Part shown: one piece after another, positions 1 through 21,100 of the stretch
How positions within the stretch are numbered: position 1 is the stretch's first letter
How the letters are laid out: the number at the start of each line of letters is the position of its first letter
Origin: a virus
Taxonomy: Duplodnaviria > Caudoviricetes
DNA: 24,150 bases
Reading direction: 5' to 3' (one strand)
IMG/VR virus record: IMGVR_UViG_3300020003_000011
Span: 1 to 24,150 of that record
Notes under the pieces: model-generated
The model's database searches: none
Told to the model about the DNA's origin: nothing
The model's input: only the letters and a program-made list of their open reading frames with translations
Position numbers and translations under genes: made by a program

Positions 1-866
1 GTGGCGCCTATCATTACTTGTCCATCCGTTAAGGATGCGCTCCATGATGGTACGCCAGTAGAACTTGTGCGAATCATAGCGCCGTTAGATGTAGGCAGCC
101 CCGTTACTGTATTTGCAGCCGATGAATAAAGAATCTGATTAATGGTTGTAGTTACAGGCCATGTTGCTGTAGACCACGTGGGGGTAGCTAAACTTCCTGA
201 TTGGAGCATTTGCAACGCTGTGGATGTGCCGGCTAATATTTCCATTGAATTGGCATCAGTCCAAACAATTCCGCCTGCATTTGCAGTTAAGGCTTTGCTT
301 GATCCACCATTAGCAAGTGTTAATGGATTTGTTAAGGTTAATGATGAAAATGTTGGTGTACTTGTCGGTGCAATATCTTGAGGTGTCGTTAATGTAACAG
401 CTCCACTTTGCGGAATACCAAATGTTCCATTGGCAAGTACTTGATTTGCTGTACCTATAATATCATCAACTGTTGCGCCAGAAGTAAAGCTTAAATTTCC
501 AAATCCATCAGTTTTTATAACACTATCTGCAATACCATCAGAAGCTGGCCATATCAATTCATCTAATATTAACTGACCATTATTTTTTGGTTGAACAGAA
601 ACATCGATATCACCATCAATTCCCTCTGCTGTATATAAAACTGCTGTATTAGTAAGAGAATTAACCAAACGAGGATAATTTACCGCAGAGACACCAACCG
701 TTCCATAGCGAAAAAAATAATTTCCGCTTGCATCTTTAATTCCAGTGCCAGGAAAATCAAAGATATAATTTTTTGTTAAATCACTTGAGCGCAATCCAAC
801 TGGTTTATCACCAAATTGCATTTCACCACCAGGTTGGAATTGGTCAAACTTTAAATCGGTAGCCAT
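1..866 (-). CDS. Tail fibre-like protein (partial, runs off the left edge; absent from the ORF track)
   Basis: Translated by hand from ATG at 866: MATDLKFDQFQPGGEMQFGDKPVGLRSS...LTLTNPLTLANGGSSKALTANAGGIVW...TGVPSWS..., open to base 1. T/S/G/A-rich fibre-like motifs; AAGGAG RBS at about 873-878. Confidence 0.75.
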   Translation of the reverse strand, partial: MATDLKFDQFQPGGEMQFGDKPVGLRSSDLTKNYIFDFPGTGIKDASGNYFFRYGTVGVSAVNYPRLVNSLTNTAVLYTAEGIDGDIDVSVQPKNNGQLILDELIWPASDGIADSVIKTDGFGNLSFTSGATVDDIIGTANQVLANGTFGIPQSGAVTLTTPQDIAPTSTPTFSSLTLTNPLTLANGGSSKALTANAGGIVWTDANSMEILAGTSTALQMLQSGSLATPTWSTATWPVTTTINQILYSSAANTVTGLPTSNGAMIRTSSTGVPSWSASLTDGQVMIGA

Positions 867-881
867 CCTTGGCTCCTTAGT

Positions 882-1238
882 TTAGTTATTTGTTCCTAAA
901 GCATAAAGAACAACACTGACATCCGTGCCAGCCGTTGCTGTAATAAAATGCAGTACGTCACCTGCCTTTACTTCCCGACATAAACTTTTTGCATCTGTAA
1001 TTAACTCTGAAGTAGTTGCAGCAAATCCGGCACCCGCTGGAACTGCGGCAGTAGCATTTAATGCAACCCAAACTAATCCATTATTTTCAACTTTAATAAT
1101 AGCTTTATATCGGCCTGCATTGCCGGGTATAGTAAGTGCTGTGTCTGTAGTAGCTGCTAAACTAGCACTATATTTTAATTCAGAAAATCTTAGCCCGAAA
1201 TCATCTACGGGTTGTTGAGATATATAGGGCGCAACCAT
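882..1238 (-). CDS. Small virion-associated protein (118 aa), function unknown
   Basis: ORF with AAGGA RBS, A/T/V-rich beta-strand composition, between two tail genes. Confidence 0.6.
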   Translation of the reverse strand: MVAPYISQQPVDDFGLRFSELKYSASLAATTDTALTIPGNAGRYKAIIKVENNGLVWVALNATAAVPAGAGFAATTSELITDAKSLCREVKAGDVLHFITATAGTDVSVVLYALGTNN

Positions 1239-1258
1239 TATAAAATTCCTTTTAGTAA

Positions 1259-3430
1259 TTAAACAATTCCAAGCCTTGCATCGGCCACATAGTGAAATTC
1301 ATAATAACCTTGATTTGCTGGATCATAAGCAATACTTGTTATAGGCGTATTATTAATAGCACGTACTACAACTGAATAGACATTTTGATCGGTATCAACC
1401 CACCAAGTATTAAAATTAGCTAAAACAGGATTAGATGCGCCAATAGGGAGGCCAACAAATACACGAAATAAATTGGGCGTGCCTGATGTCGGCGCATAAA
1501 AAACCATTGTAGGAGCAACCCTTTTTACTGTCTTATAAGATATAGAAAATGTTTTTGCATATACACCATCAAAGCCAGTATCAAACAGCAGTGGCACATT
1601 TTGTATTAAATTTCCAGCAGGGGTAATTGTTCCAGGAGGAATTCCGTTCGCGTAAGTTTTTTCATAATAATATTGGCATTCACGCAATACTTGATCTAGT
1701 GTTTGTAACGCAGGACGCGTTGGAATATCGCCCGGTGTAACTGAAATGGAATTAATAATGATACTAGTACCAGCATCTGGATAATGAAAAGTTACTACTA
1801 CTGCTAATTTTTCAGTATCACTTAATTGTGCCGCATCTGTTATTTCCCATCCAGTAAATCCATAATCATTTTTTCCATCGTCTACACCTGCACTATCAAC
1901 AATGCTGCTCAAATTAACTTGTGGAGTATCTAATCCACTCCTTGGAATCAAGGTCCAATTAGCCGCCGTCAATGTAAATGTACCATCAGCAGATAAAGTA
2001 CCAATAGTTGTAGGAAGGGTGGGAACTAATGCAGCTAATGTTCCTCTGTAGAGATAAATTCTCATTGAGACATTATCGCCTGGTATTAATTTATATCCAT
2101 AGACATTTACTGATAAACGACTTCCTACTATTTCTTTTACTTGTTCGCCTGTTAGATAAGTGAGTATATAAAAAGCATCATTTGTTCCTGCTGTTCCGAA
2201 ACTTAATCCATGAGTTGAAACGTTTTCAGACCAAGCAACATTCCCTGTCGATCCTCTCGCAGCAATCGTTTGATCAACAACATAAGCAGCACTTGTTGAA
2301 AGATTACCTCCTAATCCAAACTGAAATGGATTAACTGTGAAATCCCATCCTGTCAATAAACTTGATATGCGTTTTGCATTATTTCGAGGAATATAATAAT
2401 CCCCCTGAAATGCTTCATTTCTATTCGATGAATCCATATCAAAATGAACTAAATCAATTGATTCACCTTGAGTAGGAACAACCTGAATAGAGCTAACACG
2501 GACATGACTGCTTGGAGTAAATGACAAGTAAATATCTATGTATCCATCGATACCACTATTAACATCATTAGATGCTGGAATCGGATCTTCAGTAGAGCCT
2601 GATAATACCTGATAATTTGATTGGAACGTACCATCAACAACGACTATTGGTGTGCCCCCGCTGGAAGGACTATAAAGCATTTGAATGCCCGTTGTTCCAA
2701 GCACTTCATTACGAACCAATAAACTTCCTGCAAGAAATATATTGTCATTTGCAGTGCTTGACCATAATCCTGAATTGAATAGAAAACGCTGTCTTAAATA
2801 GCAGGTAGTAATTCCCACAGACGTTAGAACATCTAAAACATATGGCGGGCTTGTAGGAACTTTATCATTTCCTGTAATGGCAATTCTTTGCACTGTAACT
2901 GTACCGGTTCCGCTTATGACAAAATCCCAGTTTGGCGCTAATTCAAATACCTGATTTGTAGCGGATGCTACAGTGAAAACTGTGGTTTTACCTTCATTAA
3001 TAAAAATGTTGGTAAATGTCGGATTAGAGATTTGATTATTCAATCCCATTTGATTTTTTGTCGGATCATTGGCATTCGTTACATTAGGCCAAGCTTCTCG
3101 AGTAAATTGCTCAATTCCACCTTGGTCAAAAACACGAACAAAATATAAATCAAGGTTTCCCTCTAAATCATAAGGATACCAGTAGATAACCTCATTATCT
3201 CCACCTGAATTTTGCACAGTTCCGACAGCACTTAATGTTATTTCAGCACCCATTGATGTATAGGTGTAGTTCGGCGGGGAACCTGATAATTGAAAAACTT
3301 CTTTGGGTGTTGTTCTTGCATTATCTTTAAAAAATTGAAGTTTTCCATTTGCCAATGGAAGGCCATCGTCTTTATCTCTAAATAAAGATTCTAGGTCGCT
3401 TGCGACTATATATCGTTCATCGAGTGCCAT
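1259..3430 (-). CDS. Tailspike/tail fibre protein with a P22-type N-terminal head-binding domain (723 aa)
   Basis: N-terminus FRDKDDGLPLANGKLQFF..TTPKEVF..ITLSAVG resembles podovirus tailspike particle-binding domains. C-terminal LRECQYYYEK and HYVADARL motifs are typical of fibres. Lies after the ejection genes, as in P22. Confidence 0.7.
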   Translation of the reverse strand: MALDERYIVASDLESLFRDKDDGLPLANGKLQFFKDNARTTPKEVFQLSGSPPNYTYTSMGAEITLSAVGTVQNSGGDNEVIYWYPYDLEGNLDLYFVRVFDQGGIEQFTREAWPNVTNANDPTKNQMGLNNQISNPTFTNIFINEGKTTVFTVASATNQVFELAPNWDFVISGTGTVTVQRIAITGNDKVPTSPPYVLDVLTSVGITTCYLRQRFLFNSGLWSSTANDNIFLAGSLLVRNEVLGTTGIQMLYSPSSGGTPIVVVDGTFQSNYQVLSGSTEDPIPASNDVNSGIDGYIDIYLSFTPSSHVRVSSIQVVPTQGESIDLVHFDMDSSNRNEAFQGDYYIPRNNAKRISSLLTGWDFTVNPFQFGLGGNLSTSAAYVVDQTIAARGSTGNVAWSENVSTHGLSFGTAGTNDAFYILTYLTGEQVKEIVGSRLSVNVYGYKLIPGDNVSMRIYLYRGTLAALVPTLPTTIGTLSADGTFTLTAANWTLIPRSGLDTPQVNLSSIVDSAGVDDGKNDYGFTGWEITDAAQLSDTEKLAVVVTFHYPDAGTSIIINSISVTPGDIPTRPALQTLDQVLRECQYYYEKTYANGIPPGTITPAGNLIQNVPLLFDTGFDGVYAKTFSISYKTVKRVAPTMVFYAPTSGTPNLFRVFVGLPIGASNPVLANFNTWWVDTDQNVYSVVVRAINNTPITSIAYDPANQGYYEFHYVADARLGIV

Positions 3431-5457
3431 TATTTTATTCCTTGACCTTGTTTTTCAATCATTCTATTAACAAGCCATTCACGAGCTTTAGGATTTGTCA
3501 TTAGCTTATTGAATCCTGCTGATCCTAAATAAGCTCCAGCAGCGGTATGTGGTGCCATTCCTGCTGCAACACCACCTAATAATAATTTGACATTTTTTGC
3601 ACCAGTTTGTGGGTTATACATTAAACTTAATGCTTTTTCGTTCATATTTCGTAAAGTTGAATAATTCTTTAATTTTTCTTGAAGTCCTTTATCTGGAAAT
3701 AATGCTTGAAATTGTCTATCACCTAGATTTTCTATTAATGATGCTAATTTCTTAGGTTTGACTCGTCCAAATTTATCAAGAGAACCCTTTAAATAATGAT
3801 GACCTAATAATTTAGATTCTTCTGGAGAAACTAAACTATTAATTTTTTCGATTGTCTTATATTCATCAAACTTTTTACTTGGTTTAACAATTTTAGCGAC
3901 CAAAATTTGAGCATCTTTTTTCTTTAAAATTTTGTCAATATCTTCATCTAAAAAAGGTACATAATTTTCTATGAAGTTTTTATTAGCTTTTTCATGAGCA
4001 TTTTTTAATTCTGGAGAACCTTTGTTCTCTATTGAACTTTCAATATCATTACGTAATGTTTTTGAAAGTTGTTTATACAATCCGCCTGCCGCTTTATCAC
4101 TTGAATTAGTTGATTTTAATAATTGACCACCTTTTTCATCTAAATCACGAGCCAGCATAGTTGATTCTGTTATTGTGGGCGAAACAATAATTCCTTTTCT
4201 CATTAATTCGTCATTGGCTAATTGTTTAGGCTTCCCCTGAGAAACCATATCAGAACCTTTTTCTATTCCGCTAACTTTATTGAATAAGCTTTTAAATACA
4301 GGATTGATTTTATAAAAAGCTGATCCTTTAATACCTATTTTTAACTCTGATGCTAATTTATTAAAATTTGTTAAATCAGGCATAAACAATTCTTTATCAG
4401 CAATTTGATTTCTTTCAGTATAAATATCATTTTTAATCTGTCTATTTTTATAAAACGCATCTGTTAATGCTTTCTTTAGAGCATAATTGTTATCACCTTG
4501 TATTCCTTCAGGTTCAGTTTTATCAATTATATTTGATCCTTCTTCTTTAATTTGATTTTTAATTTTACCTAGTGTTGTATCAGCACCGCTAAAAGGTACT
4601 TCACTTGTGACATTTTCAAATAATGTATTAAGTGTGGGTGACTCTATAATACGACCCAAAGGCGTATTTGTTCCTTGTGCTGCTTTTAAATTAGCCTTTA
4701 ATTCTTCTGGAGAAAGATGTCCTTTGAATAAATTAGCAGGATCTAATGACTTTATTCCTTTTGCGCCTCCTCGAACTGTGCCTTCTCCAATTAATGTCAT
4801 TAAGGCTGCTTTCAATGGATCTTGATTTTGTCCTGTAGCATATACAGACGTGGCTCCAGAACGCTTAGCAAGTCCTTCTAGTCCTTTTGCAGCGCCTCCA
4901 ATCTTTGCATAAGGCAAAAGACTACCAAGTGCTCTTAGTTCTTCATCACCCGGCTTAGGCGCACCTAATAATGATTCTTCTAAACCAGATTCAGGAATTC
5001 TTAATTTTTTAATTAAATCTAATGGATTTTCTTTTAGTATAGAGGCTAATGATCCCTGTGGAAGTTTATTACCAATGCCTTTAGAGGATAAATAACCTGA
5101 AATATTTGCTGGTATATTAGCAAAACCTTCTAATCCCTTTCTGACGCCACCTCCTACATTAATAATAGGTCTAAGCATGTCGGATGGATCAGTTATTTGT
5201 TTGGCTACATTTAAAGCATGAGATGGTAAGTTAATCAATGAACTGACTAAATCAGAAGGTAAAGAACTTAATGTCGATTCAACGTCCTCTCCTATACCGC
5301 CCCATCCCTGTTTTGTTTTAGACACATCAGTATCTGATTTATTAACATTAGGAAAATTTTTATAAATAGCAGTTTTTACTTGATCATCAGACCAATTATC
5401 AGGATGTGACATAGCTTGTAACGAACCATCAGGCATACGAACTTGAATGGTAGCCAT
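3430..5457 (-). CDS. Putative DNA ejection (internal virion) protein, P22 gp16 position (675 aa)
   Basis: Large helical K/G/A-rich ORF, N-terminal VRMPDG..HPDNWSDDQV motif, Gly/Ala hydrophobic segments, third of three genes after the tail hub. TAATG coupling at both ends. Confidence 0.6.
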   Translation of the reverse strand: MATIQVRMPDGSLQAMSHPDNWSDDQVKTAIYKNFPNVNKSDTDVSKTKQGWGGIGEDVESTLSSLPSDLVSSLINLPSHALNVAKQITDPSDMLRPIINVGGGVRKGLEGFANIPANISGYLSSKGIGNKLPQGSLASILKENPLDLIKKLRIPESGLEESLLGAPKPGDEELRALGSLLPYAKIGGAAKGLEGLAKRSGATSVYATGQNQDPLKAALMTLIGEGTVRGGAKGIKSLDPANLFKGHLSPEELKANLKAAQGTNTPLGRIIESPTLNTLFENVTSEVPFSGADTTLGKIKNQIKEEGSNIIDKTEPEGIQGDNNYALKKALTDAFYKNRQIKNDIYTERNQIADKELFMPDLTNFNKLASELKIGIKGSAFYKINPVFKSLFNKVSGIEKGSDMVSQGKPKQLANDELMRKGIIVSPTITESTMLARDLDEKGGQLLKSTNSSDKAAGGLYKQLSKTLRNDIESSIENKGSPELKNAHEKANKNFIENYVPFLDEDIDKILKKKDAQILVAKIVKPSKKFDEYKTIEKINSLVSPEESKLLGHHYLKGSLDKFGRVKPKKLASLIENLGDRQFQALFPDKGLQEKLKNYSTLRNMNEKALSLMYNPQTGAKNVKLLLGGVAAGMAPHTAAGAYLGSAGFNKLMTNPKAREWLVNRMIEKQGQGIK

Positions 5458-6533
5458 TATTCAAATTCTCCTGTGCCTAAATTAAAGACCCTTCCTGATT
5501 TCTGAGATACATCAGAATCAGATTTTTGTTGATATTCTTCTGGTGATCTTAATGCTGATTTATATGTACCTGTTTCATTCTTCAATGTTTTAATGAATGA
5601 TTTATAATTTTCTAATGCAACTTTAGGGTTATTCTGCCAAGTTGCTGGGTTTGTTAGTTCTGCTAGTTTTTCTTGAACAGAAGGTTGAATTGAATCGCCA
5701 TAAAATTGACGAACTTGTTTTGCTAAAATAATAGAATTTGTTAATGCTTTTTGATAATTAACATATCTATCAGGTGCTTTACCTAATGCACTAGAGAATT
5801 GATCGGCTTTTAATTTTGTCTGTCCAGATAAACCACCATATTGAACCAAATGATCTGGATTAATTAAATTAATTGTTTTATCTATATTTGACGCAAATAA
5901 GCTTCTGTTTCTCGTTTGAGCATCAGAAATTGCTTTTTGTTTATTTAAATAAAGCTCATTTAACCTCTGCTCCTGATCTTTCGGATCAAGAGTTTGCTTT
6001 CTTCCAGTTCCCGGAACAAAACCTGCTTTTACATCTTCCATTTCTTGATCAATTTTTGCAACGGGTGTTGAAACTCTTTTATCTGCGGTACTTGTTAATT
6101 CAGTTCTATAAGCATTTAAGGCTTGTGTTTTACTGATATCTGAATCATACGCTTGTTTTGCATAACTATATTGAGGGCTCTTTTCACCATATTGTTGTCT
6201 TATTCGATCTAACCACATCGCTTGCCCTATAGAACCTGGCGCTATTTGACCGCCAAATGGCATTGATGCTTCACGTTGTAATTTTCCAATATTAGCTTGA
6301 TCGAGAGCACGTGCTACTTCAGCAGTTTTCATTTCCGAGCCAAACTTTTGTGGCTCTTGTTGGACTAAAAGAGATTGCATAGCATTTGCTAATTGTTCCT
6401 TTTGTTTTTGCCTTTCAAGCTCGGCTGGTAATTGACCTGCTTTATATCCAGTCGCTAAATTATCGACAATATCACGTACCCAAGGAATACCTTGCGGTTC
6501 AATAGTTGCATAATTAACTGGTTGAAATGGCAT
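5457..6533 (-). CDS. Putative DNA ejection protein, P22 gp20 position (358 aa)
   Basis: Q/A/K-rich helical ORF between the gp7-like and gp16-like genes; called by synteny. Confidence 0.55.
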   Translation of the reverse strand: MPFQPVNYATIEPQGIPWVRDIVDNLATGYKAGQLPAELERQKQKEQLANAMQSLLVQQEPQKFGSEMKTAEVARALDQANIGKLQREASMPFGGQIAPGSIGQAMWLDRIRQQYGEKSPQYSYAKQAYDSDISKTQALNAYRTELTSTADKRVSTPVAKIDQEMEDVKAGFVPGTGRKQTLDPKDQEQRLNELYLNKQKAISDAQTRNRSLFASNIDKTINLINPDHLVQYGGLSGQTKLKADQFSSALGKAPDRYVNYQKALTNSIILAKQVRQFYGDSIQPSVQEKLAELTNPATWQNNPKVALENYKSFIKTLKNETGTYKSALRSPEEYQQKSDSDVSQKSGRVFNLGTGEFE

Positions 6534-6543
6534 GTTCTATTCC

Positions 6544-7170
6544 TTAGAAAAACTTACTTGCAGCAGTAGCGCCAGCAGGGCCCCCAAAATAGAAACCTGC
6601 TCCACCTGCGCCCATCTTCATTAATGAAGATAGCATATCGCTTCTGGATTTGTTTTGATTTGCCTGCCCCTGAAATGCAAGGCTTCCCTGCGTTCCATAA
6701 ACATTAGACAAATCACTGGTTAAACTTTTAGATGCATCATAACCTGTATCGTATAGGTGTCTTTCGCCTTCCAAACCGGTATCTTGAATGCCTAAAACAT
6801 TCTTTAACCATTGCTGCATATCGTCACCCATTAATGAATCACTAATATGTGCCTCATTAGATATATCATCCATACTGCCACGCATACCACCTGCTGCTGC
6901 TGTATTTCCCGCGGCTTTATTCATTTCATCACGCTTTAATTGAAAACTTTTTGAGGGCGCATACTTTGACATGATTTGCTCAAGAAAGCCGGCTGGATCA
7001 GAAGACATGGAGTTATAGATAGGATTAAATCGGTCATATGCCGAATTACCACGTTGGATATATGGATTATAATTTTCTTTTTCCATCCCGGGTATTTTAT
7101 TATAATAAGGCATCGCAGCATCTGCTGGATTAGTATCATTGCCTCCAAAAAAATCATCAAAAATGCCCAT
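6544..7170 (-). CDS. DNA ejection/pilot protein, P22 gp7-like (208 aa)
   Basis: MGIFDDFFGG start, NPYIQRG, AAGNTAAAGGMRGS and Gly/Ala-rich C-terminus are characteristic of gp7-type pilot proteins. Confidence 0.65.
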   Translation of the reverse strand: MGIFDDFFGGNDTNPADAAMPYYNKIPGMEKENYNPYIQRGNSAYDRFNPIYNSMSSDPAGFLEQIMSKYAPSKSFQLKRDEMNKAAGNTAAAGGMRGSMDDISNEAHISDSLMGDDMQQWLKNVLGIQDTGLEGERHLYDTGYDASKSLTSDLSNVYGTQGSLAFQGQANQNKSRSDMLSSLMKMGAGGAGFYFGGPAGATAASKFF

Positions 7171-7182
7171 GCTCTTATTCCT

Positions 7183-7533
7183 TTAAGTGCTGGTAATTGT
7201 TTCAATTACACCTGAATCTGTCTTGAATTGTAATTTTTTTAAATTATTGTTAAACCACATTGTACCATTATTTACATTAGGTTCTATGGCTATAATTTGT
7301 GCCGTAGTGTAAGAAGGTGGATTGATTCCTAATAAAGCAGGAGAATTAATTCCAACCGCCTGTAAAGCTGTTATATCGGCTAACAATGTATTAACAAAGT
7401 CATTAAAAAATGTGACTAAATTGTTCAATACCTGAAAGGTTTGATCATTGTATAAATGACTATCAGGCGTTAATTTTCCTTCCTTATCCGTATAAGGCAT
7501 ATCAAAAAATGCAGGCAATGAGGGAAGGGTCAT
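7183..7533 (-). CDS. Small tail-associated protein (116 aa)
   Basis: Coupled (TAATG) to the gp10-like gene; C-terminal NGTMWFNNNLKKLQ resembles short fibre/needle motifs. Confidence 0.5.
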   Translation of the reverse strand: MTLPSLPAFFDMPYTDKEGKLTPDSHLYNDQTFQVLNNLVTFFNDFVNTLLADITALQAVGINSPALLGINPPSYTTAQIIAIEPNVNNGTMWFNNNLKKLQFKTDSGVIETITST

Positions 7534-9095: not shown

Positions 9096-9121
9096 CTATA
9101 AAATCCATTTTAAAGATACTT

Positions 9122-9832
9122 TTATCCGGGTTTTTTCCATCCTTTTGCAAGGTTAATGAACCCGTAATTCAATCCTCCACGTTTTTGCAAGGTAGAGGTT
9201 TTATTTATCATTAAATCAAGAGTCCTTGATTTTTTGTTAATCCATGATTCATATTTACTAAGCTGTCTCATTACATTTAATGGTGTTTCCAGTTCATATT
9301 CAGAACAAATTCGATCAGATAAAGCATAGCGCAAATAAGTCAAATAAAATTGATCAATAGTAAGACTTAAATCTTGACCCAAGATGACCGTATCTAATCT
9401 AAAAACTCCATGAATTTCCATTGGATAAGTTCTATCCGGTTTAAAATAAATATGAAGATTTCCGCCGCCAAATTGTCTTTCCCAATACCATTCAAAAGGA
9501 AGTGTTCTTATATTTTCAACACGGCTTGATCCAAAAAATTGATTTCGCTTAGTGTATTTCATGGCATAACGCACTTGATCCAGGAAGAATACTAACGTAT
9601 CGATCTGGGTCAAGTTTTGAATAGGGTAGACTTCCTGTCCTGTTACGAAATTAGCCGTATAGGTACTCTCGTAAGGTATCATTCCTTGATCAACATCTTT
9701 TTCAGTCAAAATATCATTTAACCACAAAAGACCATCTGATATTTGACCTCCGCTGACTGTTTCAAATTCACGTGATACGACGCCAGAGGAATAATACGAT
9801 CCTGTAATAAGCTCTGTCGTCATATACGTCAT
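9122..9832 (-). CDS. Head-to-tail adaptor, P22 gp4-like (236 aa)
   Basis: MTTELITGSY..GVV...ISDGLLWLNDIL N-terminus and YLRYALSDRICSEY C-terminus; upstream of the gp10-like gene. Confidence 0.75.
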   Translation of the reverse strand: MTYMTTELITGSYYSSGVVSREFETVSGGQISDGLLWLNDILTEKDVDQGMIPYESTYTANFVTGQEVYPIQNLTQIDTLVFFLDQVRYAMKYTKRNQFFGSSRVENIRTLPFEWYWERQFGGGNLHIYFKPDRTYPMEIHGVFRLDTVILGQDLSLTIDQFYLTYLRYALSDRICSEYELETPLNVMRQLSKYESWINKKSRTLDLMINKTSTLQKRGGLNYGFINLAKGWKKPG

Positions 9833-9862
9833 TATCTTTACCTTTAAGGAAAGATTTATAAA

Positions 9863-10642
9863 TTAAAGAAGATCGGTAAAGCCGCAAATTGTCAATGTTA
9901 AAGCATCACCTGCTACTACTCGATATCTAAAATTCATACCAGTTGTAAAAGAAATTGTTGGTATTTCCATAGTGCCAATTTGCACGGCTGCAACACCAGT
10001 CCCAAATCTAACCATAGGTGTTGCAGTACCGTTTAATAATGCAAAGTCAGCCGTATTTGTAGCTGCTGCGGCTGTATAAACAATTCCAACTGTTGCTAGT
10101 GATTCTTTTTTACCAATAGGAGCTTCTAGTGTTAAAGGTGGAACATAGCTAGCTGTAAATAGATCAACAGTTCCGGCAGAAAACGTAGTAGCTGTACCAC
10201 CTGTGAGAATAGTTAATGGAACCTCATAATAATATTTACGATTTACGCCATCCCCATATTGAAACAGCCTTGTATTGATCGCAGAACCGTCTGTTCTTGC
10301 CCAGCCTATTCTACGAAACATATCGTAACCTTTAGGTAAAGAAGGACTAGTTGAGCTTAGTGATATTAAAAATCCAGTGGGCATAAATTTTGTTGAATCG
10401 CCAATGACAAAAACTGCATAAAACTTATTCGCAACTAGAACGCCGGTATCTATTCCGTTTAAACCAACTCTGCTCATTAATAATGATGTAGAGCCGCTCG
10501 ACACAGATAAATCATTACTATTAGTGCTATCACGTGCCATTCCACTTTCAATAGCTAATGTATTGGCGGCACTTGTATCAAGTGAAAATCCGTTTACATA
10601 AAGTTCGCCAGCATTAACGATAGGGGTATTAGGTGTTGTCAT
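9863..10642 (-). CDS. Virion structural (decoration/fibre-like) protein, about 259 aa
   Basis: Start moved to ATG 10642 (GGAG RBS at about 10649-10652). GLNGIDTG..YAVFVI..PSLPKGY..FRRIGW motif seen in phage structural proteins; directly after the coat gene. Confidence 0.6.
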   Translation of the reverse strand: MTTPNTPIVNAGELYVNGFSLDTSAANTLAIESGMARDSTNSNDLSVSSGSTSLLMSRVGLNGIDTGVLVANKFYAVFVIGDSTKFMPTGFLISLSSTSPSLPKGYDMFRRIGWARTDGSAINTRLFQYGDGVNRKYYYEVPLTILTGGTATTFSAGTVDLFTASYVPPLTLEAPIGKKESLATVGIVYTAAAATNTADFALLNGTATPMVRFGTGVAAVQIGTMEIPTISFTTGMNFRYRVVAGDALTLTICGFTDLL

Positions 10643-10690
10643 TTTATTCTCCAAATTATTCCATTAATTTTTAACTGTGAGAAAGAGACC

Positions 10691-10715
10691 AACCGGCGAA
10701 ATAATTTCACCGGTT
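10691..10715 (-). terminator. Hairpin downstream of the coat gene (attenuating terminator or mRNA stabiliser)
   Basis: AACCGGTGAAAT-T-ATTTCGCCGGTT on the minus strand; weak U-tail (GGTCTCTTTCTC). Confidence 0.55.
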
Positions 10716-10726
10716 TATAGTATTAA

Positions 10727-11971
10727 TTAAACAGGCAATGCGATCATCATTGCATATTCATCAACCAATGTTTTTCCCCAGATAATATCATGTACCATCC
10801 CGCGCTGATTTTGACCAAACAAAGAACCATAGTATTGGCGTATAGATGCACCACTATTAGGATCAGTCATAGCAGACGTTGGATAAGGAACTTCTTCAGG
10901 TAATTTAGGCATCGCAAGGAACAAAGGATCACCTGCCATTAATAATCCGCATCGATGGTCTGGTAAAACACTAACCTGCATACCCGCTACAATCGCAGTA
11001 TTAATATTTTGAGTATTTCCAGCCGTGGCTTGCAAAGGAGGAAAAATATTAACAGTTACTTGTGAACCAGCAGTGGAAGCTGCTGCCGCTGTTGCTCTAA
11101 ACTGTACTGGAGATTGAGAAACCTCATGGCCAATAAATGTGAGGAATCGCAGATTAGTAAAACCAGAAACACCATCACTAAATTGGAATTTATCGTACAG
11201 TTTAATAGAATTAGCATCACTTGCTGCTGTTGTACCGCTAAAAGTAATTTGAATGACACCGCCAGCCGCATTGGTTACAACACTTACTACTGTTAAAATC
11301 GTGCCAGCATTGCCTTCAGTGCCTGCTAAATGGGTTTTAAGCAAGTTAGATTGATACCATTCGCAATTTGAAAAACGACCAATTTCCCAGCTATTTGCTT
11401 CACGATTACCACGATCAAGTGTAAATTGATTTAAACCGCTGTTAACAATAGGAGGAAATGTCAAGTCTGATAAATAACCACAGGTTTTATCTTTAGCGGC
11501 GCCAAAGTTTCTAAAAAAGGCTAATGAATTCGCGAGCTGAAGATATGTGCTAATTGGAGTAATCCCGTCGCCATAGAATCTAAATGTATTACTCTCAGCC
11601 AATGCAGCTACGTTTGCTTCAACCTTTGAACCAATTTCAGCAATTGCTGAACGTCCAAATTTATCCATATAATCACGAACGTTAAAAATGAACTGTTGCG
11701 CTGTAAATTCATAAGCAGTTGATGCTTGTTCATTTACTGTTAATTGTTGAACGCGCTGTTCGGCTGCTTGAAAAGTAATTACTAAACTATTAGTCGTAGT
11801 AAAACGTGGGGGCAAATCAAATGATACTGTATCGCCCAAGTTTTTCGGAACATCATCATTGAAGCGTTGGAATTTTTTGTTTGATGTAGAAATAAACGCA
11901 AAACTATTTAAAAGTAATGCTAAATTTGATTCGTTGTAAGTAATAACTTGTTGCAAAATATTAGTAGGCAT
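10727..11971 (-). CDS. Major capsid protein, P22 gp5-like (414 aa)
   Basis: MPTNILQQV start, NLGDTVSFDLPPRF, C-terminal DIIWGKTLV; size and position after scaffold and portal. Confidence 0.9.
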   Translation of the reverse strand: MPTNILQQVITYNESNLALLLNSFAFISTSNKKFQRFNDDVPKNLGDTVSFDLPPRFTTTNSLVITFQAAEQRVQQLTVNEQASTAYEFTAQQFIFNVRDYMDKFGRSAIAEIGSKVEANVAALAESNTFRFYGDGITPISTYLQLANSLAFFRNFGAAKDKTCGYLSDLTFPPIVNSGLNQFTLDRGNREANSWEIGRFSNCEWYQSNLLKTHLAGTEGNAGTILTVVSVVTNAAGGVIQITFSGTTAASDANSIKLYDKFQFSDGVSGFTNLRFLTFIGHEVSQSPVQFRATAAAASTAGSQVTVNIFPPLQATAGNTQNINTAIVAGMQVSVLPDHRCGLLMAGDPLFLAMPKLPEEVPYPTSAMTDPNSGASIRQYYGSLFGQNQRGMVHDIIWGKTLVDEYAMMIALPV

Positions 11972-12029
11972 CGCAAAGACTCCCTGTCAGAGAACAATTT
12001 GCAACGACTTATGAGTTGTATGGTTAGAG

Positions 12030-12764
12030 TTAACCTCTAAGCCAAGGTTGGTTTTGCAGGTCTTTAATACTCATTTTGCCGTTGCTACCGGAAACTCTGG
12101 AAGGTTGCAAACGGTCGAGGGGTTCGGATGTGCTTTGCGATCCAGCATCAGACTGCGCTTGTTTATTGGTACTAATAGATTGTGCCAAACTTGTCAATGC
12201 GCCTTGTGCTTGTCGCGGATTTCTTTCAGCAAGCCGATCAAGTCCAGCAAGCTTTAATGGATTCTTAGAAAGTTCATAGACAATATCAGCAGCGTTTTCC
12301 ATTCCTGACAATAAATAAAGTAATTGTGGGAATGCTGCGGGGTCAAAATCCTTCGTGATCTCATCAAAGTCTTGATATGCGGTTTTGCCTTGCGCAATTT
12401 TTGAAAGATATGAATCAGCAGCGCGGTTCATTTCAGCTCTATGAGCTTCCATCTGTTGTTTCTCTTGGTGCTCGCGCATATCTTGATTAAATCTTTCTTG
12501 TACTCGCTGGTAAATAGCATCTGTATCAACATCTCTAGGAATTTCAGCATTTCGTTGCTGTTGTTTGGCTTGAATTGCTGACTCTAAGTCACGTTGGTAT
12601 TTTGCCTCAGCTTCACGCTTGGCGTTATCTGCCGCTTGAGAGGATTGATGCGCAACAATCTTTGCTAGTTCATCCCGAGTAAAGAGTTTTTCAGGTTCTT
12701 TTTTAGGAGACGTAACAATATTATCCGCATTACCACTCATATCTGAAACTTGTTTTTCGTCCAT
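12030..12764 (-). CDS. Capsid scaffolding protein (244 aa)
   Basis: Charged coiled coil, KLFTRDEL..IV, YQDFDE, ADIVYELSKNP motifs; between portal and coat. Confidence 0.85.
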   Translation of the reverse strand: MDEKQVSDMSGNADNIVTSPKKEPEKLFTRDELAKIVAHQSSQAADNAKREAEAKYQRDLESAIQAKQQQRNAEIPRDVDTDAIYQRVQERFNQDMREHQEKQQMEAHRAEMNRAADSYLSKIAQGKTAYQDFDEITKDFDPAAFPQLLYLLSGMENAADIVYELSKNPLKLAGLDRLAERNPRQAQGALTSLAQSISTNKQAQSDAGSQSTSEPLDRLQPSRVSGSNGKMSIKDLQNQPWLRG

Positions 12765-12899
12765 TTATCATCTTCCATAATGATTTTTTGACCCGCTTCA
12801 TTGCGGTAAGTTTCCTCGGTAACGATGGAGTCTCGCCCATTTTTCCGCATGAGTGCGTATGCCACGGTGATGCGCCGTGTCGCTAGATTTTTGATCTAT
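12765..12899 (-). ncRNA. Structured 5' leader of the scaffold-coat transcript (candidate cis-regulatory RNA)
   Basis: GC-rich non-coding stretch folding into consecutive hairpins: CACGG-7-CCGUG, CGCA-4-UGCG, CCGC-6-GCGG, AUCAU-8-AUGAU. Confidence 0.55.
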
Positions 12900-12904
12900 T
12901 ATAG

Positions 12905-12933
12905 ATTATTTTCCTATTACACCACATTGTCAA
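12905..12933 (-). promoter_or_regulatory. Sigma70-type promoter for scaffold/coat
   Basis: TTGACA (12933-12928), 17-bp spacer, AATAAT (12910-12905). Confidence 0.6.
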
Positions 12934-13061
12934 TACTTATTTAAAGATTTTTTATTGACCATTTTTTTGATTAACTTTTTATCTTGCATTTTGTCTTCAT
13001 GTTTTGATTTGTCTTTCATGTTTCTTTTCATCTTAGAAACCTGTTTTCTTTGCATTTTCAT
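12930..13061 (-). CDS. Small Lys/Met-rich basic protein (43 aa), below the ORF-track cut-off
   Basis: MKMQRKQVSKMKRNMKDKSKHEDKMQDKKLIKKMVNKKSLNKY; AAGGA RBS 5 nt upstream. Confidence 0.6.
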   Translation of the reverse strand: MKMQRKQVSKMKRNMKDKSKHEDKMQDKKLIKKMVNKKSLNKY

Positions 13062-13071
13062 AAAAATCCTT

Positions 13072-13131
13072 CTATTTTTTCATTTTCTTTGATGATGGCT
13101 TAATTGCTTTTTGTATCCATTTTTCAGCCAT
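13072..13131 (-). pseudogene. 19-codon mini-ORF MAEKWIQKAIKPSSKKMKK, probable internally deleted remnant of a small basic phage protein
   Basis: Strong AGGAG RBS overlapping the portal stop. Both ends resemble the roughly 60-aa 'KWIQKAIK...TLKKM' phage proteins as I recall them. Confidence 0.5.
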
Positions 13132-13140
13132 CTCTTTCTC

Positions 13141-15270
13141 CTATTCACTGCGACTTTCTTGACCTTTAAATGTTTCTCTCATATGAGAACTTATATTAAT
13201 TGCAGCTTCCACGGCGCTGCGTGTGTTTTCAGCATCTAGTTCAGCAGACTTTAATTCATTTTGAACGTTTGCATTACGAATTTTACTAATGGTTTCAATA
13301 AATTTAGTCTCAGAATCTCTTTCTTTAATCTCAAGATTAGCCGCATCAACTTTAGATTTTTCTTGAATAGCCATAATAGCTACTTCTCCATCAGAAGGTG
13401 ATTGAACTTCTTTTTGAAGCTTCGCCATTTCCATAGCTTGCTTTTTAGCATCAGATTGCATTTGCATCTGTTGCATTTGTGATGCTTGTTGCTTCATTGC
13501 TTTTTGCTGTGCCATCCATTCATTAGCTTTTTCTTTCAATTCATCTATACCGCGCATTTCTATATTATCGAGAAGTGTGGGCAATCCTTCTTCATTAAAA
13601 AAGTCTGCAAAGCCTTTATTTGCCTGCGACATAGCAATAACTGTTTGGAGCGCCATTTCTTTTTGCATAGCGAAATTCACCCCTGTTTCAACTTTAACCT
13701 GTAAAGTATTAGGGTCGTAATTCATATAAAGAGAACCTTTTTTATTTATCTCTTTAAATGAACGTTTACCGTTTGGTAAAAGAATAGGCAAGCTTCTAGG
13801 TGTGCGATAGTACTTAGGAATCAAATCAATGATGATCTGAGCGACTCTATTTAACCCTTTAATATAACCTACGATATAAGGAACAGACGTAGCATCGCCT
13901 TGTATTGCGCTCCTAGCAAATGCAATACCAGACATAGCTCCTTGATTAACTCCTTGAGCCATGTCATATGATCCCAAAATAGTTTGGGTCATTTCGTCTG
14001 ACATCCTAAACGTATCTGAAATCTGAGGAGGAATAGGCGTGCGCATGACTTCACGAGGAGGAGGTAAAGTTACATTTGGATTATTAGAATCTAAAAAATG
14101 ATTGTACATTAATGTATCAGCTTTTTGCACATTCTGATACGCTTCTTGGTAATCCTCTGGAATAGACTCAACAGCTACAATAAATTTATGTTGGACTGTA
14201 TTTTCTAACTCGTTACCAAGCGATTGACCAGCAAAATTCTTTAAACGTTGTATACCTTCAGCATGATAAACATAAGGTCGAGTCATCTGCGTATAAGTAC
14301 CAGATTCTTTGATGATAATACTATTACCATCAACAAAAACTAAGGGTAAAAATTTGAAATCTGTTTCTTTAAAATCTAATAAACGACTTTCACAAAAACG
14401 ATAGCGGCATATATATTCAATAAGTGTTTTTCTTTCGCTAATAGGAATAGGTGGCTGTTCAATCAATCCTCTTTTTTCCCATTCCTCAATAAATCTTTTA
14501 TATTCGTCTTTCGTTACGCTATGACCATTTGATAATTTATAAATAGTCGCACGTTTGGTCTTTTTCTCATAAAAATCACATACTAAAACAATTTCTTCTT
14601 TTTCGTTTTGAAAAGACCAGTCAAAGCCTGACAATGCACGGGTATAAGTCATTTCTTTGGCTATTTCTTCTCCAAACTCGTCTTCAAATTGCTTTCGAGT
14701 CATAGGATAAAGTTCAGCGCAAAATCGACCATCCCCTTTATGTGATTTACGCGCTAATGGATCAAAGACAGTAAGTGTAGGATCGAATACACGTTCAACA
14801 CAGATATTTTGCTCAAAGCTCATTTCATTAACGTATTCAGTAAATACGCGCAAAACAGAAAAGCCGCCAGCTAATAAATCACTGTATACATTATAGTCAA
14901 GCATATCATTGGCGCCGTCAAAAAATATAGCGCGCAAATGGGCTTCTATGACTTTTAATGTCTCAGTAAATTCACGAGTTAACATCGGCAATGGAATACC
15001 ATCAGCCGCACGAACAGTTAAACTGGGTTGTTGTTTAGCAAATTCCCCGCGTTTACGAGAAACAAACGATTCTAATATGTTGAATTCAAGGGTAGGGTAA
15101 CCATTATCAGCAAGTGTCGCTGCTTCTTCATCTGAAAGAGAAGTTTTAAATACGAACTTAACAAATTTTTCAAACCGTTCAACATTTTCGTTATTGTATT
15201 GCTGGGCTTCTTCAACATACTTTTTAAGATCGGGTAAACGGTCTGTATGTAACTTTGCGAGTTCCGGCAT
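13141..15270 (-). CDS. Portal protein, P22 gp1-like (709 aa)
   Basis: PTLEFNIL, LLAGGFSVLRVFTEY, FDPLARKSHKGDGRFC, SGIA, IPKYY motifs, Gln-rich C-terminal barrel; follows terL. Confidence 0.92.
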   Translation of the reverse strand: MPELAKLHTDRLPDLKKYVEEAQQYNNENVERFEKFVKFVFKTSLSDEEAATLADNGYPTLEFNILESFVSRKRGEFAKQQPSLTVRAADGIPLPMLTREFTETLKVIEAHLRAIFFDGANDMLDYNVYSDLLAGGFSVLRVFTEYVNEMSFEQNICVERVFDPTLTVFDPLARKSHKGDGRFCAELYPMTRKQFEDEFGEEIAKEMTYTRALSGFDWSFQNEKEEIVLVCDFYEKKTKRATIYKLSNGHSVTKDEYKRFIEEWEKRGLIEQPPIPISERKTLIEYICRYRFCESRLLDFKETDFKFLPLVFVDGNSIIIKESGTYTQMTRPYVYHAEGIQRLKNFAGQSLGNELENTVQHKFIVAVESIPEDYQEAYQNVQKADTLMYNHFLDSNNPNVTLPPPREVMRTPIPPQISDTFRMSDEMTQTILGSYDMAQGVNQGAMSGIAFARSAIQGDATSVPYIVGYIKGLNRVAQIIIDLIPKYYRTPRSLPILLPNGKRSFKEINKKGSLYMNYDPNTLQVKVETGVNFAMQKEMALQTVIAMSQANKGFADFFNEEGLPTLLDNIEMRGIDELKEKANEWMAQQKAMKQQASQMQQMQMQSDAKKQAMEMAKLQKEVQSPSDGEVAIMAIQEKSKVDAANLEIKERDSETKFIETISKIRNANVQNELKSAELDAENTRSAVEAAINISSHMRETFKGQESRSE

Positions 15271-16798
15271 TCCTTGCCTCTCCTGCTCTGATTTTTCGAT
15301 GCAGTGATTGATTCATATTTTGAACCATTCGCTTTTGAGACTCCTGTCTCTTGTCAATATTGTATATTGTTTTTTCAATTAATGCGATACGTATACCATC
15401 TGATAATGTATCAGCTATATCATCAAATGAATGGGATTCATTTGCCGTAATTTTTGACATATGAGTAGTGCACATTCCTATATGTCTAGCTCCAGTGGTA
15501 AAAGAAATACGTCTTGATGAAATAAAAGGCTGCATTTCAAGAAATCTTTTAGTTTTGCTCCCTGATTCACGGGTGCGTTCAATTTCCCTTATGTGAAGAC
15601 CTCTAATATTCTTAAGTGTACTAATAAGGGTCACACCAGTTGATTTTTTTTCTATTCCAGCAATCATCGGAGGTTTAGGATGCAAAGTACAATTTGCATA
15701 GAAATCGATAAATGCCTGTTCTAAGTCTTTAGGTTCTATACGCAATTCAATACAATTTAGCCAGTGCAATCCCAATTCTCCAATTTTCTTACCAAAGTTT
15801 TCTATTTCATAGACGCCAAAAAAGCTAAAAACAGTAGCATCATTCCAGGATTTTTCTGTTTCTGCTGTATCCGCAATTACAAATGTACAAAATATATCTG
15901 GCTCTTGATCTAACTCAACAAACCATTCAGGTTTAAATAATGCGCCGCCTGAAGGTAAGGGATTTTGTTGATATTGGGATGCAAAAACATAAGGAGACTT
16001 CTCTTGCAATACTAATAGTTTTTCTTTGGGCATCATTTCAGGATAAAGAGCATTTCCAGCTATATCTAATCCTTGGAGTATAGTTGTATGCCATTCATCT
16101 ACATCTTTACCGCTCGTTAAATAATCGGTTAAATCTGATTCATGTACGCGTTGACCAACATAAATAATAGGAACATTAATACCACGAACACGCTGTCTTA
16201 TTGTTTCATCATAATTATCAATAACACCTTGTCTAATAGTATCGGAATGCGCTTCATCAGGTTTATGCGCATCGTCAATGATTACAGCGCCACTGAATCT
16301 ATCTAATCCCGGGCATCCTCCATCATGGCCAGTCACCGATCCTGAGCTCCCATAAGCTCTCATTTGACCGCCATGAGTCGTTTTAAATCGATCTTTAGCC
16401 CTGCTATCTGGATCAATACCAACATCGAATAAATAAGAATACATTTGTGATGAAACAATTGAACGAATAAAAGTAGTATGCTTTGTTGCAAGATCATGTC
16501 CATATGAAATATATAGAAAATTTGAATCTGGAAATTCAGCCCAACACCATGCTACAAACATGCTAACAAAAGTTGATTTTCCACACCCGGGAGGTAAATT
16601 AATTATTTCTCTTAAGAGTTCAAGCCTTTTAATTTGTGTAAGTGATCTGCACACAGTAATATGATGGCTTTCTCGTCCAATTGGCTGGGAGACAATGAAA
16701 TCACGGCCAGTGATATGACGAAAAAAGTAACGGGTAAACTCAAGGAGAGAACCACGTAGGCGAGAAGCTTCTTGTTCTTTTTCATAATCAATTTTCAT
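15224..16798 (-). CDS. terL: Terminase large subunit (524 aa)
   Basis: Walker A INLPPGCGKST, Walker B AVIIDDAHK, QRVHESDL, ASQYQQNP, nuclease motifs ADTA..ND and HSFDDIAD. Confidence 0.95.
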   Translation of the reverse strand: MKIDYEKEQEASRLRGSLLEFTRYFFRHITGRDFIVSQPIGRESHHITVCRSLTQIKRLELLREIINLPPGCGKSTFVSMFVAWCWAEFPDSNFLYISYGHDLATKHTTFIRSIVSSQMYSYLFDVGIDPDSRAKDRFKTTHGGQMRAYGSSGSVTGHDGGCPGLDRFSGAVIIDDAHKPDEAHSDTIRQGVIDNYDETIRQRVRGINVPIIYVGQRVHESDLTDYLTSGKDVDEWHTTILQGLDIAGNALYPEMMPKEKLLVLQEKSPYVFASQYQQNPLPSGGALFKPEWFVELDQEPDIFCTFVIADTAETEKSWNDATVFSFFGVYEIENFGKKIGELGLHWLNCIELRIEPKDLEQAFIDFYANCTLHPKPPMIAGIEKKSTGVTLISTLKNIRGLHIREIERTRESGSKTKRFLEMQPFISSRRISFTTGARHIGMCTTHMSKITANESHSFDDIADTLSDGIRIALIEKTIYNIDKRQESQKRMVQNMNQSLHRKIRAGEARNAGTRKVTYRPFTRS

Positions 16799-16851
16799 CC
16801 TTAACTAAATTCCTTAATTAACTTTCCTTGTTAATTAAAATTAACTTAAAT

Positions 16852-17068: not shown

Positions 17069-17218
17069 CTATTTCTTTTTCTTACCCTTAGATCGTCTTG
17101 CTTCGCTAAATGCAATGGCTATCGCCTGCTTCTGTGGCTTTCCGGCCTTTACCTCACGAGACACGTTATCCGAGAATCCCTTCTTACTTTTCGCTGCTTT
17201 TCCTTTTAAAAGGGGCAT
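17069..17218 (-). CDS. Small basic phage protein (49 aa), 'MPLKKG..GKPQKQAVAIA' type
   Basis: MPLLKGKAAKSKKGFSDNVSREVKAGKPQKQAIAIAFSEARRSKGKKKK; GGAGG RBS. The track's + ORF 17046-17264 is its antisense shadow. Confidence 0.8.
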   Translation of the reverse strand: MPLLKGKAAKSKKGFSDNVSREVKAGKPQKQAIAIAFSEARRSKGKKKK

Positions 17219-17789
17219 CTTCAATCCTCCATTCTGGATTTTTATTGATAAAATTCCTTATTGAATCAATTTTACGTCTTCTTGTTAATCCACGTCCATA
17301 ATGATGCTTGTGATGACAATTGGCACAAACAACTTCTAAATTATCAATATGATTGTTTCTCCTATCATGATCTATATGATGAACACACAAAACCATATCA
17401 TCATTTATTCCACACCGATTACAAATATTTGGATAATGAATTAAAGCCTTTGTAACATAATTCATTTTTCCAGTAGCTATCATATACATACCAGAGCATT
17501 GTCTTGTGCAAAATTGAGCTTTTAATCGTCTCGCCTTATCTAAAAATAATTCTCCACAAAATTTGCAAGCTATCTCTTTTTGATAACACCCTTTAGGCTG
17601 CCTATCTGGTCTATACTTATCCCTGCATTTTGCAGAACAGTATTTTGAATGCTCCACAGTTGTTGTGTATTCAATTTCACAATGATCACAATTTCTTTTT
17701 CTTCTCTTAAAATGATAGCCACTCTTTCCTTTCTCAAACTTCTTTAAGTTTTTGATACCCGAATTACTTTTACCTTTTGGTAAAGACAT
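17184..17789 (-). CDS. HNH endonuclease with N-terminal zinc-finger repeats (201 aa), homing-endonuclease-like
   Basis: CDHC..YCSAKC and CKFCG..FCTRQC fingers, then CNRCG..VHHIDHDRRNNHIDNLEVVCANCHHKHH. Confidence 0.9.
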   Translation of the reverse strand: MSLPKGKSNSGIKNLKKFEKGKSGYHFKRRKRNCDHCEIEYTTTVEHSKYCSAKCRDKYRPDRQPKGCYQKEIACKFCGELFLDKARRLKAQFCTRQCSGMYMIATGKMNYVTKALIHYPNICNRCGINDDMVLCVHHIDHDRRNNHIDNLEVVCANCHHKHHYGRGLTRRRKIDSIRNFINKNPEWRIEDAPFKRKSSEK

Positions 17790-20385: not shown

Positions 20386-20420
20386 TTATCCACAAAAATA
20401 GTGGATAAGTATGTGAATAA
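20386..20420. promoter_or_regulatory. Cluster of three DnaA boxes
   Basis: TTATCCACA 20386-20394 (+), TTATCCACT 20408-20400 (-), TTATTCACA 20420-20412 (-). Confidence 0.7.
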
Positions 20421-20514
20421 CTAAAATAAATGAACTAATAGCAAGCATTTTAAACGTATTTAAGTTATTAGTCAAAAAATATGCAACATAAGATTAAATA
20501 GACTAAAATATTAT

Positions 20515-20543
20515 GTTGACATGGTCAACTTACATGGTAATAT
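20515..20543 (+). promoter_or_regulatory. Sigma70 promoter with a palindromic operator over the -35
   Basis: TTGACA 20516-20521, 16-bp spacer, TGgTAATAT ending at 20543; inverted repeat GTTGAC-ATG-GTCAAC at 20515-20529. Confidence 0.65.
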
Positions 20544-20578
20544 ATGATTATCAAGTAGACATGAAGAAGGTATACCAA

Positions 20579-20755: not shown

Positions 20756-20768
20756 AATGGAGGTTTTT

Positions 20769-21084: not shown

Positions 21085-21100
21085 TTCAAAAGGACTTATT

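Follow-up and report, generated by a model that had tools for sequence, protein, structure and literature searches.

CsrA-shaped hairpins at the late-gene starts of a P22-like phage family: a conserved set of candidate operators for a host translational regulator

Why should the messages for one phage virion gene after another begin with a short hairpin that presents GGA in its loop, and what might read such hairpins? The question is raised by a 24,150-nucleotide (nt) stretch of viral DNA, called the window below (IMG/VR record IMGVR_UViG_3300020003_000011, positions 1 to 24,150), in which this 24-kb part of a P22-like podophage carries its late genes on the minus strand. A sequence-only reading had proposed hairpins of the kind bound by the translational regulator CsrA/RsmA at the start of almost every virion gene. 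We find a real, conserved and late-gene-specific set of CsrA-shaped hairpins, about half the number first claimed, whose function is predicted. Whole-genome tests were run on the complete record G001 (37,933 bp), which is 99.9% identical to the window and served as its stand-in. With the coat, portal, 118-amino-acid (aa) and 208-aa proteins as queries we retrieved a large uncultured family, of which 24 whole records form the comparison set.

For each start, the best hairpin that places GGA in a loop of at most 8 nt was compared with 200 shuffles of the untranslated bases only. Every GGA 6-mer and the coding part were kept unchanged, so that the Shine-Dalgarno (SD) core stayed fixed. Additionally, we computed P(loop), the ensemble probability of GGA lying in a loop of at most 8 nt, in a 90-nt context. 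The ten motif strings named by the sequence-only reading are all present on the minus strand at their given positions; apart from the coat start, taken up below, the hairpins are:

16814..16838, minus strand: hairpin in the terL leader with a 10-bp AU-rich stem and the loop AAGGAAA, its GGA 29 nt ahead of the AUG
15266..15278, minus strand: portal hairpin, spanning the AUG (15270), with the gene's own SD (AGGAG) upstream
12767..12784, minus strand: SD hairpin of the scaffold candidate, hexaloop AUGGAA
10653..10670, minus strand: upstream hairpin of the 259-aa gene, weak and unsupported on energy
9094..9117, minus strand: SD hairpin of the gp10-like gene, hexaloop AUGGAU, marginal
7171..7190, minus strand: SD hairpin of the 208-aa (gp7-like) gene, hexaloop AAGGAA
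6535..6549, minus strand: proposed hairpin of the 358-aa gene, unsupported
1237..1259, minus strand: SD hairpin of the 118-aa gene, AU-only, weak in this phage
861..874, minus strand: fibre hairpin GCC-AAGGAU-GGC, spanning the AUG (866), with the SD AAGGAG immediately upstream

In the folding model, GGA is predicted to be unpaired in a loop at the portal (shuffle p=0.015; P(loop) 0.87), scaffold (p=0.020; 1.00), gp7-like (p=0.020; 0.98) and fibre (p=0.050; 0.99) starts, the last being the closest of all to a site of the type obtained by SELEX (systematic ligand evolution by exponential enrichment). At terL (p=0.015) the prediction holds locally, with P(loop) 0.99 in 50 nt and 0.35 in 90 nt. 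The gp10-like hairpin is marginal, as it reached p=0.010, yet its P(loop) was 0.33. The GGA is not predicted to be looped at the 118-aa (p=0.71; 0.22), 358-aa (p=0.44; 0.02) and 259-aa starts, although the 259-aa hairpin (-0.6 kcal/mol, p=0.63, P(loop) 0.14) still follows the strict hexaloop pattern. Nor is it at the coat gene, where the proposed GAC-AGGGA-GUC loop (p=0.22; P(loop) 0.00) exists only as an alternative fold inside a long hairpin that buries the AUG. Thus, the earlier count of 10 of 11 non-coupled major genes was overstated for this phage: four sites are robust, two partial and four unsupported. "Almost every virion gene" shrinks to about half, the part that stood being portal, scaffold, gp7-like and fibre, with terL locally and gp10 marginally. 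As that reading described, the TAATG-coupled starts at 7533, 5457 and 3430 have no hairpin and the gp4-like gene has its ribosome-binding site (RBS) buried in a stem. Two further fibre-type genes, the first ones beyond the end of the window (G001 18231 and 19344), have GGA-loop hairpins as well (p=0.045 and 0.095). A second GGA site, of the kind that a CsrA dimer could bridge, occurs in the window at terL, portal, fibre and the 259-aa gene; terL has two further ANGGA sites downstream of its hairpin, one the SD near 16812, the other an AAGG-AUG that overlies the start (16798).

The SD-fixed shuffles place the GGA-loop pattern above chance, with six of the ten claimed sites at p≤0.05, and the excess belongs to late genes. 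Among GGA-containing starts of G001, p≤0.05 was reached by 7 of 16 late starts and 1 of 31 others (Fisher p=0.001), in agreement with the claim that early starts lack comparable hairpins. A strict ANGGAN loop with at least four closing pairs was found at 50 of the 204 sites at late starts, 20 of the 381 at other starts and 80 of the 5193 elsewhere, in a 23-genome count made with no selection of families and with G010 omitted, as it is 83% identical to G001. Without G001, G009 and G010 the strict loops were 38/176 late and 19/328 other (p=2e-7). Gene calls for these counts came from a simple caller, and late starts were checked by N-terminal alignment, with some wrong starts persisting; redundant orthologous starts were removed at a threshold of 90% identity across 42 nt, as were starts close to a contig end.

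Further controls addressed the geometry. In a register test on seven families, picked after the family-wise z-scores described below, pairing peaked at the closing pair of the hexaloop (0.21 versus a null of 0.03, n=303) and was strongest at sites over the AUG (0.43 versus 0.01, n=35), whereas non-late starts were flat (n=598). Swapping arms between late genes of one genome abolished pairing (z=10.7, n=276; non-late 1.7, n=562). Late starts whose SD lacks GGA showed no hairpin excess (z -0.5, n=87). With coupling called by a reading-frame test, which replaced a noisy string-match version, coupled starts gave z -0.4 (n=74), as against 15.2 for free ones (n=488). Within one gene, the 723-aa orthologue repeats this: the hairpin is there when the start is free (z 8.7, n=37) and absent when it is coupled (z 0.7, n=10). 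Five unrelated P22-like phages lacked the pattern (2/47 late, 5/105 other starts), and a generic late-gene effect was rejected on these outgroups.

The robust sites also recur in relatives. Family z-scores were 9.3 for the portal (at the SD-position GGA, n=62), 5.3 for the scaffold (n=36), 8.5 for the gp7-like gene (n=38) and 8.6 for the fibre (n=17). On low-redundancy representatives (N-terminal identity below 60%) they were still raised, at 4.7 for portal, 3.3 for scaffold, 5.1 for fibre, 7.1 for gp7-like (26 representatives), 2.5 for terL and 2.5 for the 723-aa gene. The gp10 hairpin is not conserved (z=1.0, n=44), the 118-aa signal drops from 4.8 to 1.0 on 13 low-redundancy representatives, and the 358-aa signal goes from 1.8 to 0.3. 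Stems vary and loops stay: row shuffles gave z 4.6-8.4 with several pair types per position, the pattern persists on low-redundancy sets for five to six families, and together with the arm swaps this bears out the proposed turnover of stems under a constant loop. G009 is informative here because its late genes are ~68-76% identical and yet the stems differ at the gp7-like, 723-aa and terS starts. At terL, G009 retains a similar stem with the loop AUGGAU, and many relatives instead have GCC-ANGGAU-GGC over the AUG, with ANGG-AUG at 11 of 55 starts. A terS site over the AUG is found in 6 of 24 relatives and not in the window phage. Among fibre relatives all of A, C, G and U occur as the N of ANGGA, and one has GUC/GAC arms.

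For the portal, the separate upstream SD means that the looped GGA is not the SD. More widely, the looped GGA is frequently distinct from the SD at fibre, portal and terL when relatives are included. At fibre, terL, terS and the window-phage portal the loop covers the AUG and the SD is upstream of it, any of the four bases occurs at N, and the arms change in concert.

These features match what is known of CsrA sites. A CsrA/RsmE site is an ANGGAN loop on a stem of four or fewer pairs, according to the sections consulted of PMC7652899. The late starts show this geometry, an ANGGAN hexaloop with variable N on a short stem, and the loops overlap the SD or start codon there, as CsrA operators do. 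In hexaloop, short stem, SD/start overlap and coupled genes following the upstream gene, the set resembles the CsrA/RsmA/RsmE repression described in those sections (RsmE-hcnA PDB 2JPP, glgC, pgaA, the SELEX consensus; PMC7652899). It differs from those targets in that it concerns phage virion genes along one late operon, mostly with single sites, and binding here is predicted only. The computational comparisons (SD-fixed shuffles, late versus early starts, stem turnover, coupled genes and csrA in related phages) all favour CsrA-shaped late-gene operators. On the folding predictions we consider it fairly probable that the hairpins at the terL, portal, scaffold, gp7-like and fibre starts, with their predicted ANGGA-in-loop, are operators at which host CsrA/RsmA would bind and block translation. 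CsrA as the reader, binding, repression, the host copy as the source, the release route and the tie to host physiology are inferred.

Which CsrA would read these sites? The earlier suggestion of a phage-encoded protein is not supported for this phage, as neither a Pfam search nor a profile of the eight phage proteins found csrA in the complete G001. Elsewhere in the family csrA is present in 8 of 24 records, counting a phage contig binned in G024, and lies among the early genes. All eight proteins keep L4 and R44 in alignment, residues highlighted for CsrA in the consulted part of PMC7652899. The CsrA of G002 scores above both NCBIfam CsrA cut-offs and aligns with solved CsrA/RsmE structures, and its nearest homologues are often on 30-40 kb contigs. 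As an observation on gene context, the window has a small counter-oriented operon between rep and terS (20513-21289, plus strand), and csrA of G002, G004, G013 and G022 sits in a similar operon that has two families in common with it. A self-contained phage csrA regulon was rejected, since G001 lacks csrA and hairpin density is independent of it. As density is equal whether or not the phage has csrA, the simplest reader is a host protein; it is likely that host CsrA reads the hairpins and that the phage copy is an accessory.

The proposed search for a multi-GGA antagonist small RNA (sRNA) also came back negative for G001, by both Rfam and a cluster scan. Nowhere in G001 do three ANGGA hairpins lie together within 110 nt as a possible sponge, nine such clusters in seven other genomes are not sRNA-like, and an Rfam scan of seven stretches found no antagonist sRNA, its sole match being a group I intron. 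The RsmY model gave sub-threshold matches in one of three host genomes, and controls also matched.

The head genes carry structures of another kind:

11967..12009, minus strand: long hairpin at the coat start, pairing the SD and burying the AUG (11971)
12793..12857, minus strand: structured RNA of the scaffold leader, a candidate tandem of two linked pseudoknots together with a hairpin, with 9 nt between its end and the GGA hairpin
12905..12933, minus strand: sigma70-like promoter match, 11/12, ahead of the scaffold-coat operon, candidate

Across the family the coat hairpin has a minimum free energy of -16.6 versus -9.5 when shuffled and a probability of a paired AUG of 0.85 versus 0.50 (first 40 of 79 starts). 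Its alignment (26 sequences) has seven consensus pairs, two of them changed on both sides. Translation of coat is predicted to be blocked by its own occluding hairpin, distinct from the GGA-loop sites; because the AUG is buried in most relatives, this most abundant protein would need an opener. In the scaffold leader 93.6% of cells are paired, versus 24-47% in slid controls, and nine pairs show double-sided change versus 3.0 when shuffled, in a model drawn by hand from the same 22 hand-picked sequences that were used for counting. Against Rfam it gave nothing at the gathering level and three chance-level matches at E≤5. The leader is a candidate operator for scaffold autoregulation. P22 scaffold autoregulation, in the portion consulted of 10.1101/2022.12.13.520362, offers a likeness in that a conserved structured leader precedes the scaffold gene here. 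Unlike the GGA-loop set it concerns one gene, and the likeness to the leader is one of position. The coat hairpin and scaffold leader both point to layered translational control of the head genes. The 11/12 promoter match is similarly placed in L240 and L143; sigma70-like matches numbered 74 against 79 expected, so that such a match is weak alone. On the coat gene itself, there is a group I intron (RF00028, 72 bits) in the coat region of G009 (L108:4333-4547), and the coat match is ~247 nt overlong at L012, L013, L014 and L052.

The coat also led to bacterial genomes. Among 203 scored genomes of the order holding a record titled uncultured Legionella sp., three contained it; a further three genomes of the order lie outside the scored 203. 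Two of the three coat-positive genomes hold apparently whole prophages, one of them within a 3.3-Mb chromosome:

G213:C1, ~1,738,500-1,774,000: prophage, flanked by host genes such as Ku
G211:C27, ~46,000-85,000: prophage

These two genomes have 7 and 4 CsrA-family matches, respectively. Spacer-like DNA matches in the 203 genomes were limited to prophage matches and short imperfect ones, with no usable spacer. According to the consulted text of PMC5338858, RsmX/Y/Z release CsrA in starving Legionella, at the replicative-to-transmissive switch; the family resembles that setting in that its relatives are prophages in genomes of the order. In its P22-like portal it differs from the T7-like phage LME-1, for which the consulted text of PMC12407071 has no mention of CsrA; LME-1 was rejected as the identity of this phage.

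In the proposed mechanism, host CsrA would bind the loops over the RBS or start codon and exclude the ribosome, as at glgC, hcnA and pgaA, and late-operon mRNA made early or by leakage would remain untranslated until CsrA is titrated away. CsrA might be released by host Csr/Rsm sRNAs, or the late transcripts might out-titrate it by their sheer amount. Translation of coupled genes would go along with that of the gene upstream. Such a translational lock would be useful given a sigma70-like site in front of the scaffold, the site itself being weak evidence. If the host is Legionella-like, assembly might be timed to the transmissive switch, a step that rests on relatives 50-60% identical in coat. 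We hold the fullest version only tentatively and on balance doubt it: a widespread family of temperate P22-like phages of Legionella-order bacteria in which packaging, scaffold, ejection and fibre genes are wired into host Csr, so that virions would be made only on RsmX/Y/Z-type release of CsrA at the replicative-to-transmissive switch, as bacteria leave their protist host. Its own csrA in a third of members would retune the gate, and coat and scaffold would be under the two further new RNA structures.

Several results weigh against host CsrA as the reader of a late-gene switch. Within the window phage, the coat, 259-aa, 358-aa and 118-aa sites fail among the ten proposed, and stems are often AU-only and below 4 kcal/mol. 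At least two ANGGA per start were found family-wide at 53 of 373 late and 77 of 817 other starts, so most starts are single-site. The z-scores are inflated by relatedness, those of the 118-aa, gp10, 358-aa and 259-aa genes falling to 0.3-1.5 on low-redundancy sets. The dense operon-wide form is limited to G001, G009 and G010, which have six sites each at p≤0.05 against 0-3 in the remaining 21 genomes, and a strict late site is absent in 9 of 24 records. Hairpin density is 38% with and 37% without phage csrA (strict sites 15/59 and 35/145), and four csrA-positive phages, with 2-3 candidate sites apiece, have zero hairpins. Just a few hairpin sites are present in each of the two prophages from bacterial genomes. 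The Legionella-order relatives are 50-60% identical in coat to the window phage. Lastly, A at position -2 is enriched in hairpins (0.79 versus 0.56), but likewise in non-late starts (0.69 versus 0.53), and this shared excess makes it weak as evidence.

An explanation that needs no protein is that the hairpins tune initiation, displaying the SD in a loop and shielding it from long-range pairing, or damping initiation for virion stoichiometry, with the GGA loop as a by-product of the SD. The majority of sites are indeed at the SD and have weak stems, the low-copy proteins (terminase, portal, ejection, fibre) bear hairpins and coat has its own structure, and phage csrA is unlinked to the hairpins. 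We nevertheless regard tuning as unlikely: in the same genes SDs without GGA lack a hairpin, the sites covering the AUG or lying 20-30 nt upstream are something other than SDs, a single loop register dominates and five other P22-like phages are without the pattern.

The loops could also be read by something other than CsrA, such as a phage-encoded translational repressor (a small unknown protein or the scaffold) or an endonuclease that cuts GGA loops. The window phage has many small open reading frames without any family match and no csrA, its scaffold leader has a conserved structure of its own, and the P22 scaffold autoregulates translation, as reported in the consulted part of 10.1101/2022.12.13.520362. 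We rate a different reader as quite unlikely, for no non-virion family is in all 24 records (only virion genes reach all of them, and the biggest non-late families are in 18, 16 and 16), the geometry matches CsrA, and relatives have real csrA genes.

Repression by CsrA might, alternatively, be only part of the picture, with CsrA acting as an activator or switch: binding to the AGGGA loop at coat would open an inner stem that pairs the SD, or phage CsrA variants would displace host CsrA. The occluding hairpin contains the AGGGA loop as an alternative fold, the family z for a looped GGA at the coat SD is 3.9-4.4, activation of the unfolding type is described for ymdA in the consulted part of PMC7652899, and knockdown of a phage csrA gave smaller plaques in the results consulted from PMC11879866. 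At coat, however, the AUG would still be buried by the outer stem and the signal may stem from that stem's A/U runs, and loops on the SD or AUG fit ribosome exclusion, so we consider activation very unlikely. Chance and AU-rich composition around an ordinary SD could account for the four weak window sites, but as an explanation of the whole set this is scarcely credible, being refuted by the shuffle, register, arm-swap, coupling, outgroup and strict-loop controls.

Related systems are known on the phage and the host side. Phage csrA genes are known from the Bcep22-like JC1 (PMC9144972), from 30 of 2517 phages (PMC7366521) and from PTXU04, whose gp28 was called untested in role before its knockdown, which shrank plaques (PMC11879866), each as far as the consulted sections go. 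Our family is like these carriers in that 8 of 24 records have csrA with the RNA-binding residues kept. It is unlike them in that candidate phage mRNA targets are defined here, none being named in the passages on those genes, and in the absence of csrA from the window phage. Its csrA is also three times more frequent than hit-or-miss, unlike that of the reported carriers in those sections. On the host side, csrA overexpression lowers release of the Salmonella prophage PSAP2-2, ascribed to cI level in the consulted text of PMC12371270, and host CsrA limits prophage release in Serratia too (cited in the consulted part of PMC7366521). As with these prophages, the host Csr state would affect phage output; direct late-mRNA sites are proposed here, unlike the cI level given for PSAP2-2 in that text (PMC12371270).

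A literature search gave no report of CsrA sites on phage late mRNA, within a coverage that was thin for subscription journals and did not extend to supplements, which could list phage mRNAs as CsrA targets. The phage family is new; phage csrA genes were already known. The role of those genes is left open in the consulted parts of PMC11879866, PMC7366521 and PMC9144972, and this family supplies defined candidate targets. It also has built-in controls, namely looped GGA sites that are not SDs, a gene that occurs both coupled and free, and members that have or lack csrA. Should binding prove true, a global host translational regulator would directly gate virion assembly, a layer beyond antitermination and late sigma factors. 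Additionally, the family reaches prophages of the Legionella order, where described phages are few.

The late genes of the window are arranged as follows:

3..16798, minus strand: P22-like late operon, in the order terL, portal, scaffold candidate, coat, 259 aa, gp4-like, gp10-like, 116, 208, 358, 675, 723 and 118 aa, fibre
15224-16798, minus strand: terL
13141-15270, minus strand: portal, PF16510
between portal and coat, minus strand: scaffold candidate, 244 aa, its identity from position alone, with no family match
10727-11971, minus strand: coat, phrog_283
within the operon, minus strand: gp10-like gene for head closure, phrog_578
within the operon, minus strand: 208-aa gene, gp7-like by position

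Assignment to the P22-like podophages follows from the PF16510 portal, phrog_283 coat, phrog_578 head closure protein, Sf6-type terS (PF20901) and gene order. The isolated phages nearest by portal are just 21-24% identical, and the coat had no match among isolated phages. Late gene order is retained in most of the 24 records, and in 3 of them (G015, G020 and G021) the block from gp10 to the 675-aa gene is inverted within the operon. Small lysine-rich proteins (45-70 aa) are encoded near portal/scaffold, at 17069-17224 in the window and in the relatives' families f16 and f21 (13/24 and 10/24 records). In the part of G001 beyond the window we recognised by eye a ParA-like gene accompanied by a small partner, and an RtcB-like gene (L092:3343-4213 and 6801-8060). 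No integrase was noticed when the genes of G001 were looked over by eye, and the prophage is therefore possibly of plasmid type. Lastly, positions 20386-20420 of the window hold three DnaA-box-like 9-mers within 35 nt, just downstream of a 10/12 promoter match at 20475-20447. Short stretches like this one recur in several genomes of the Legionella-containing order.

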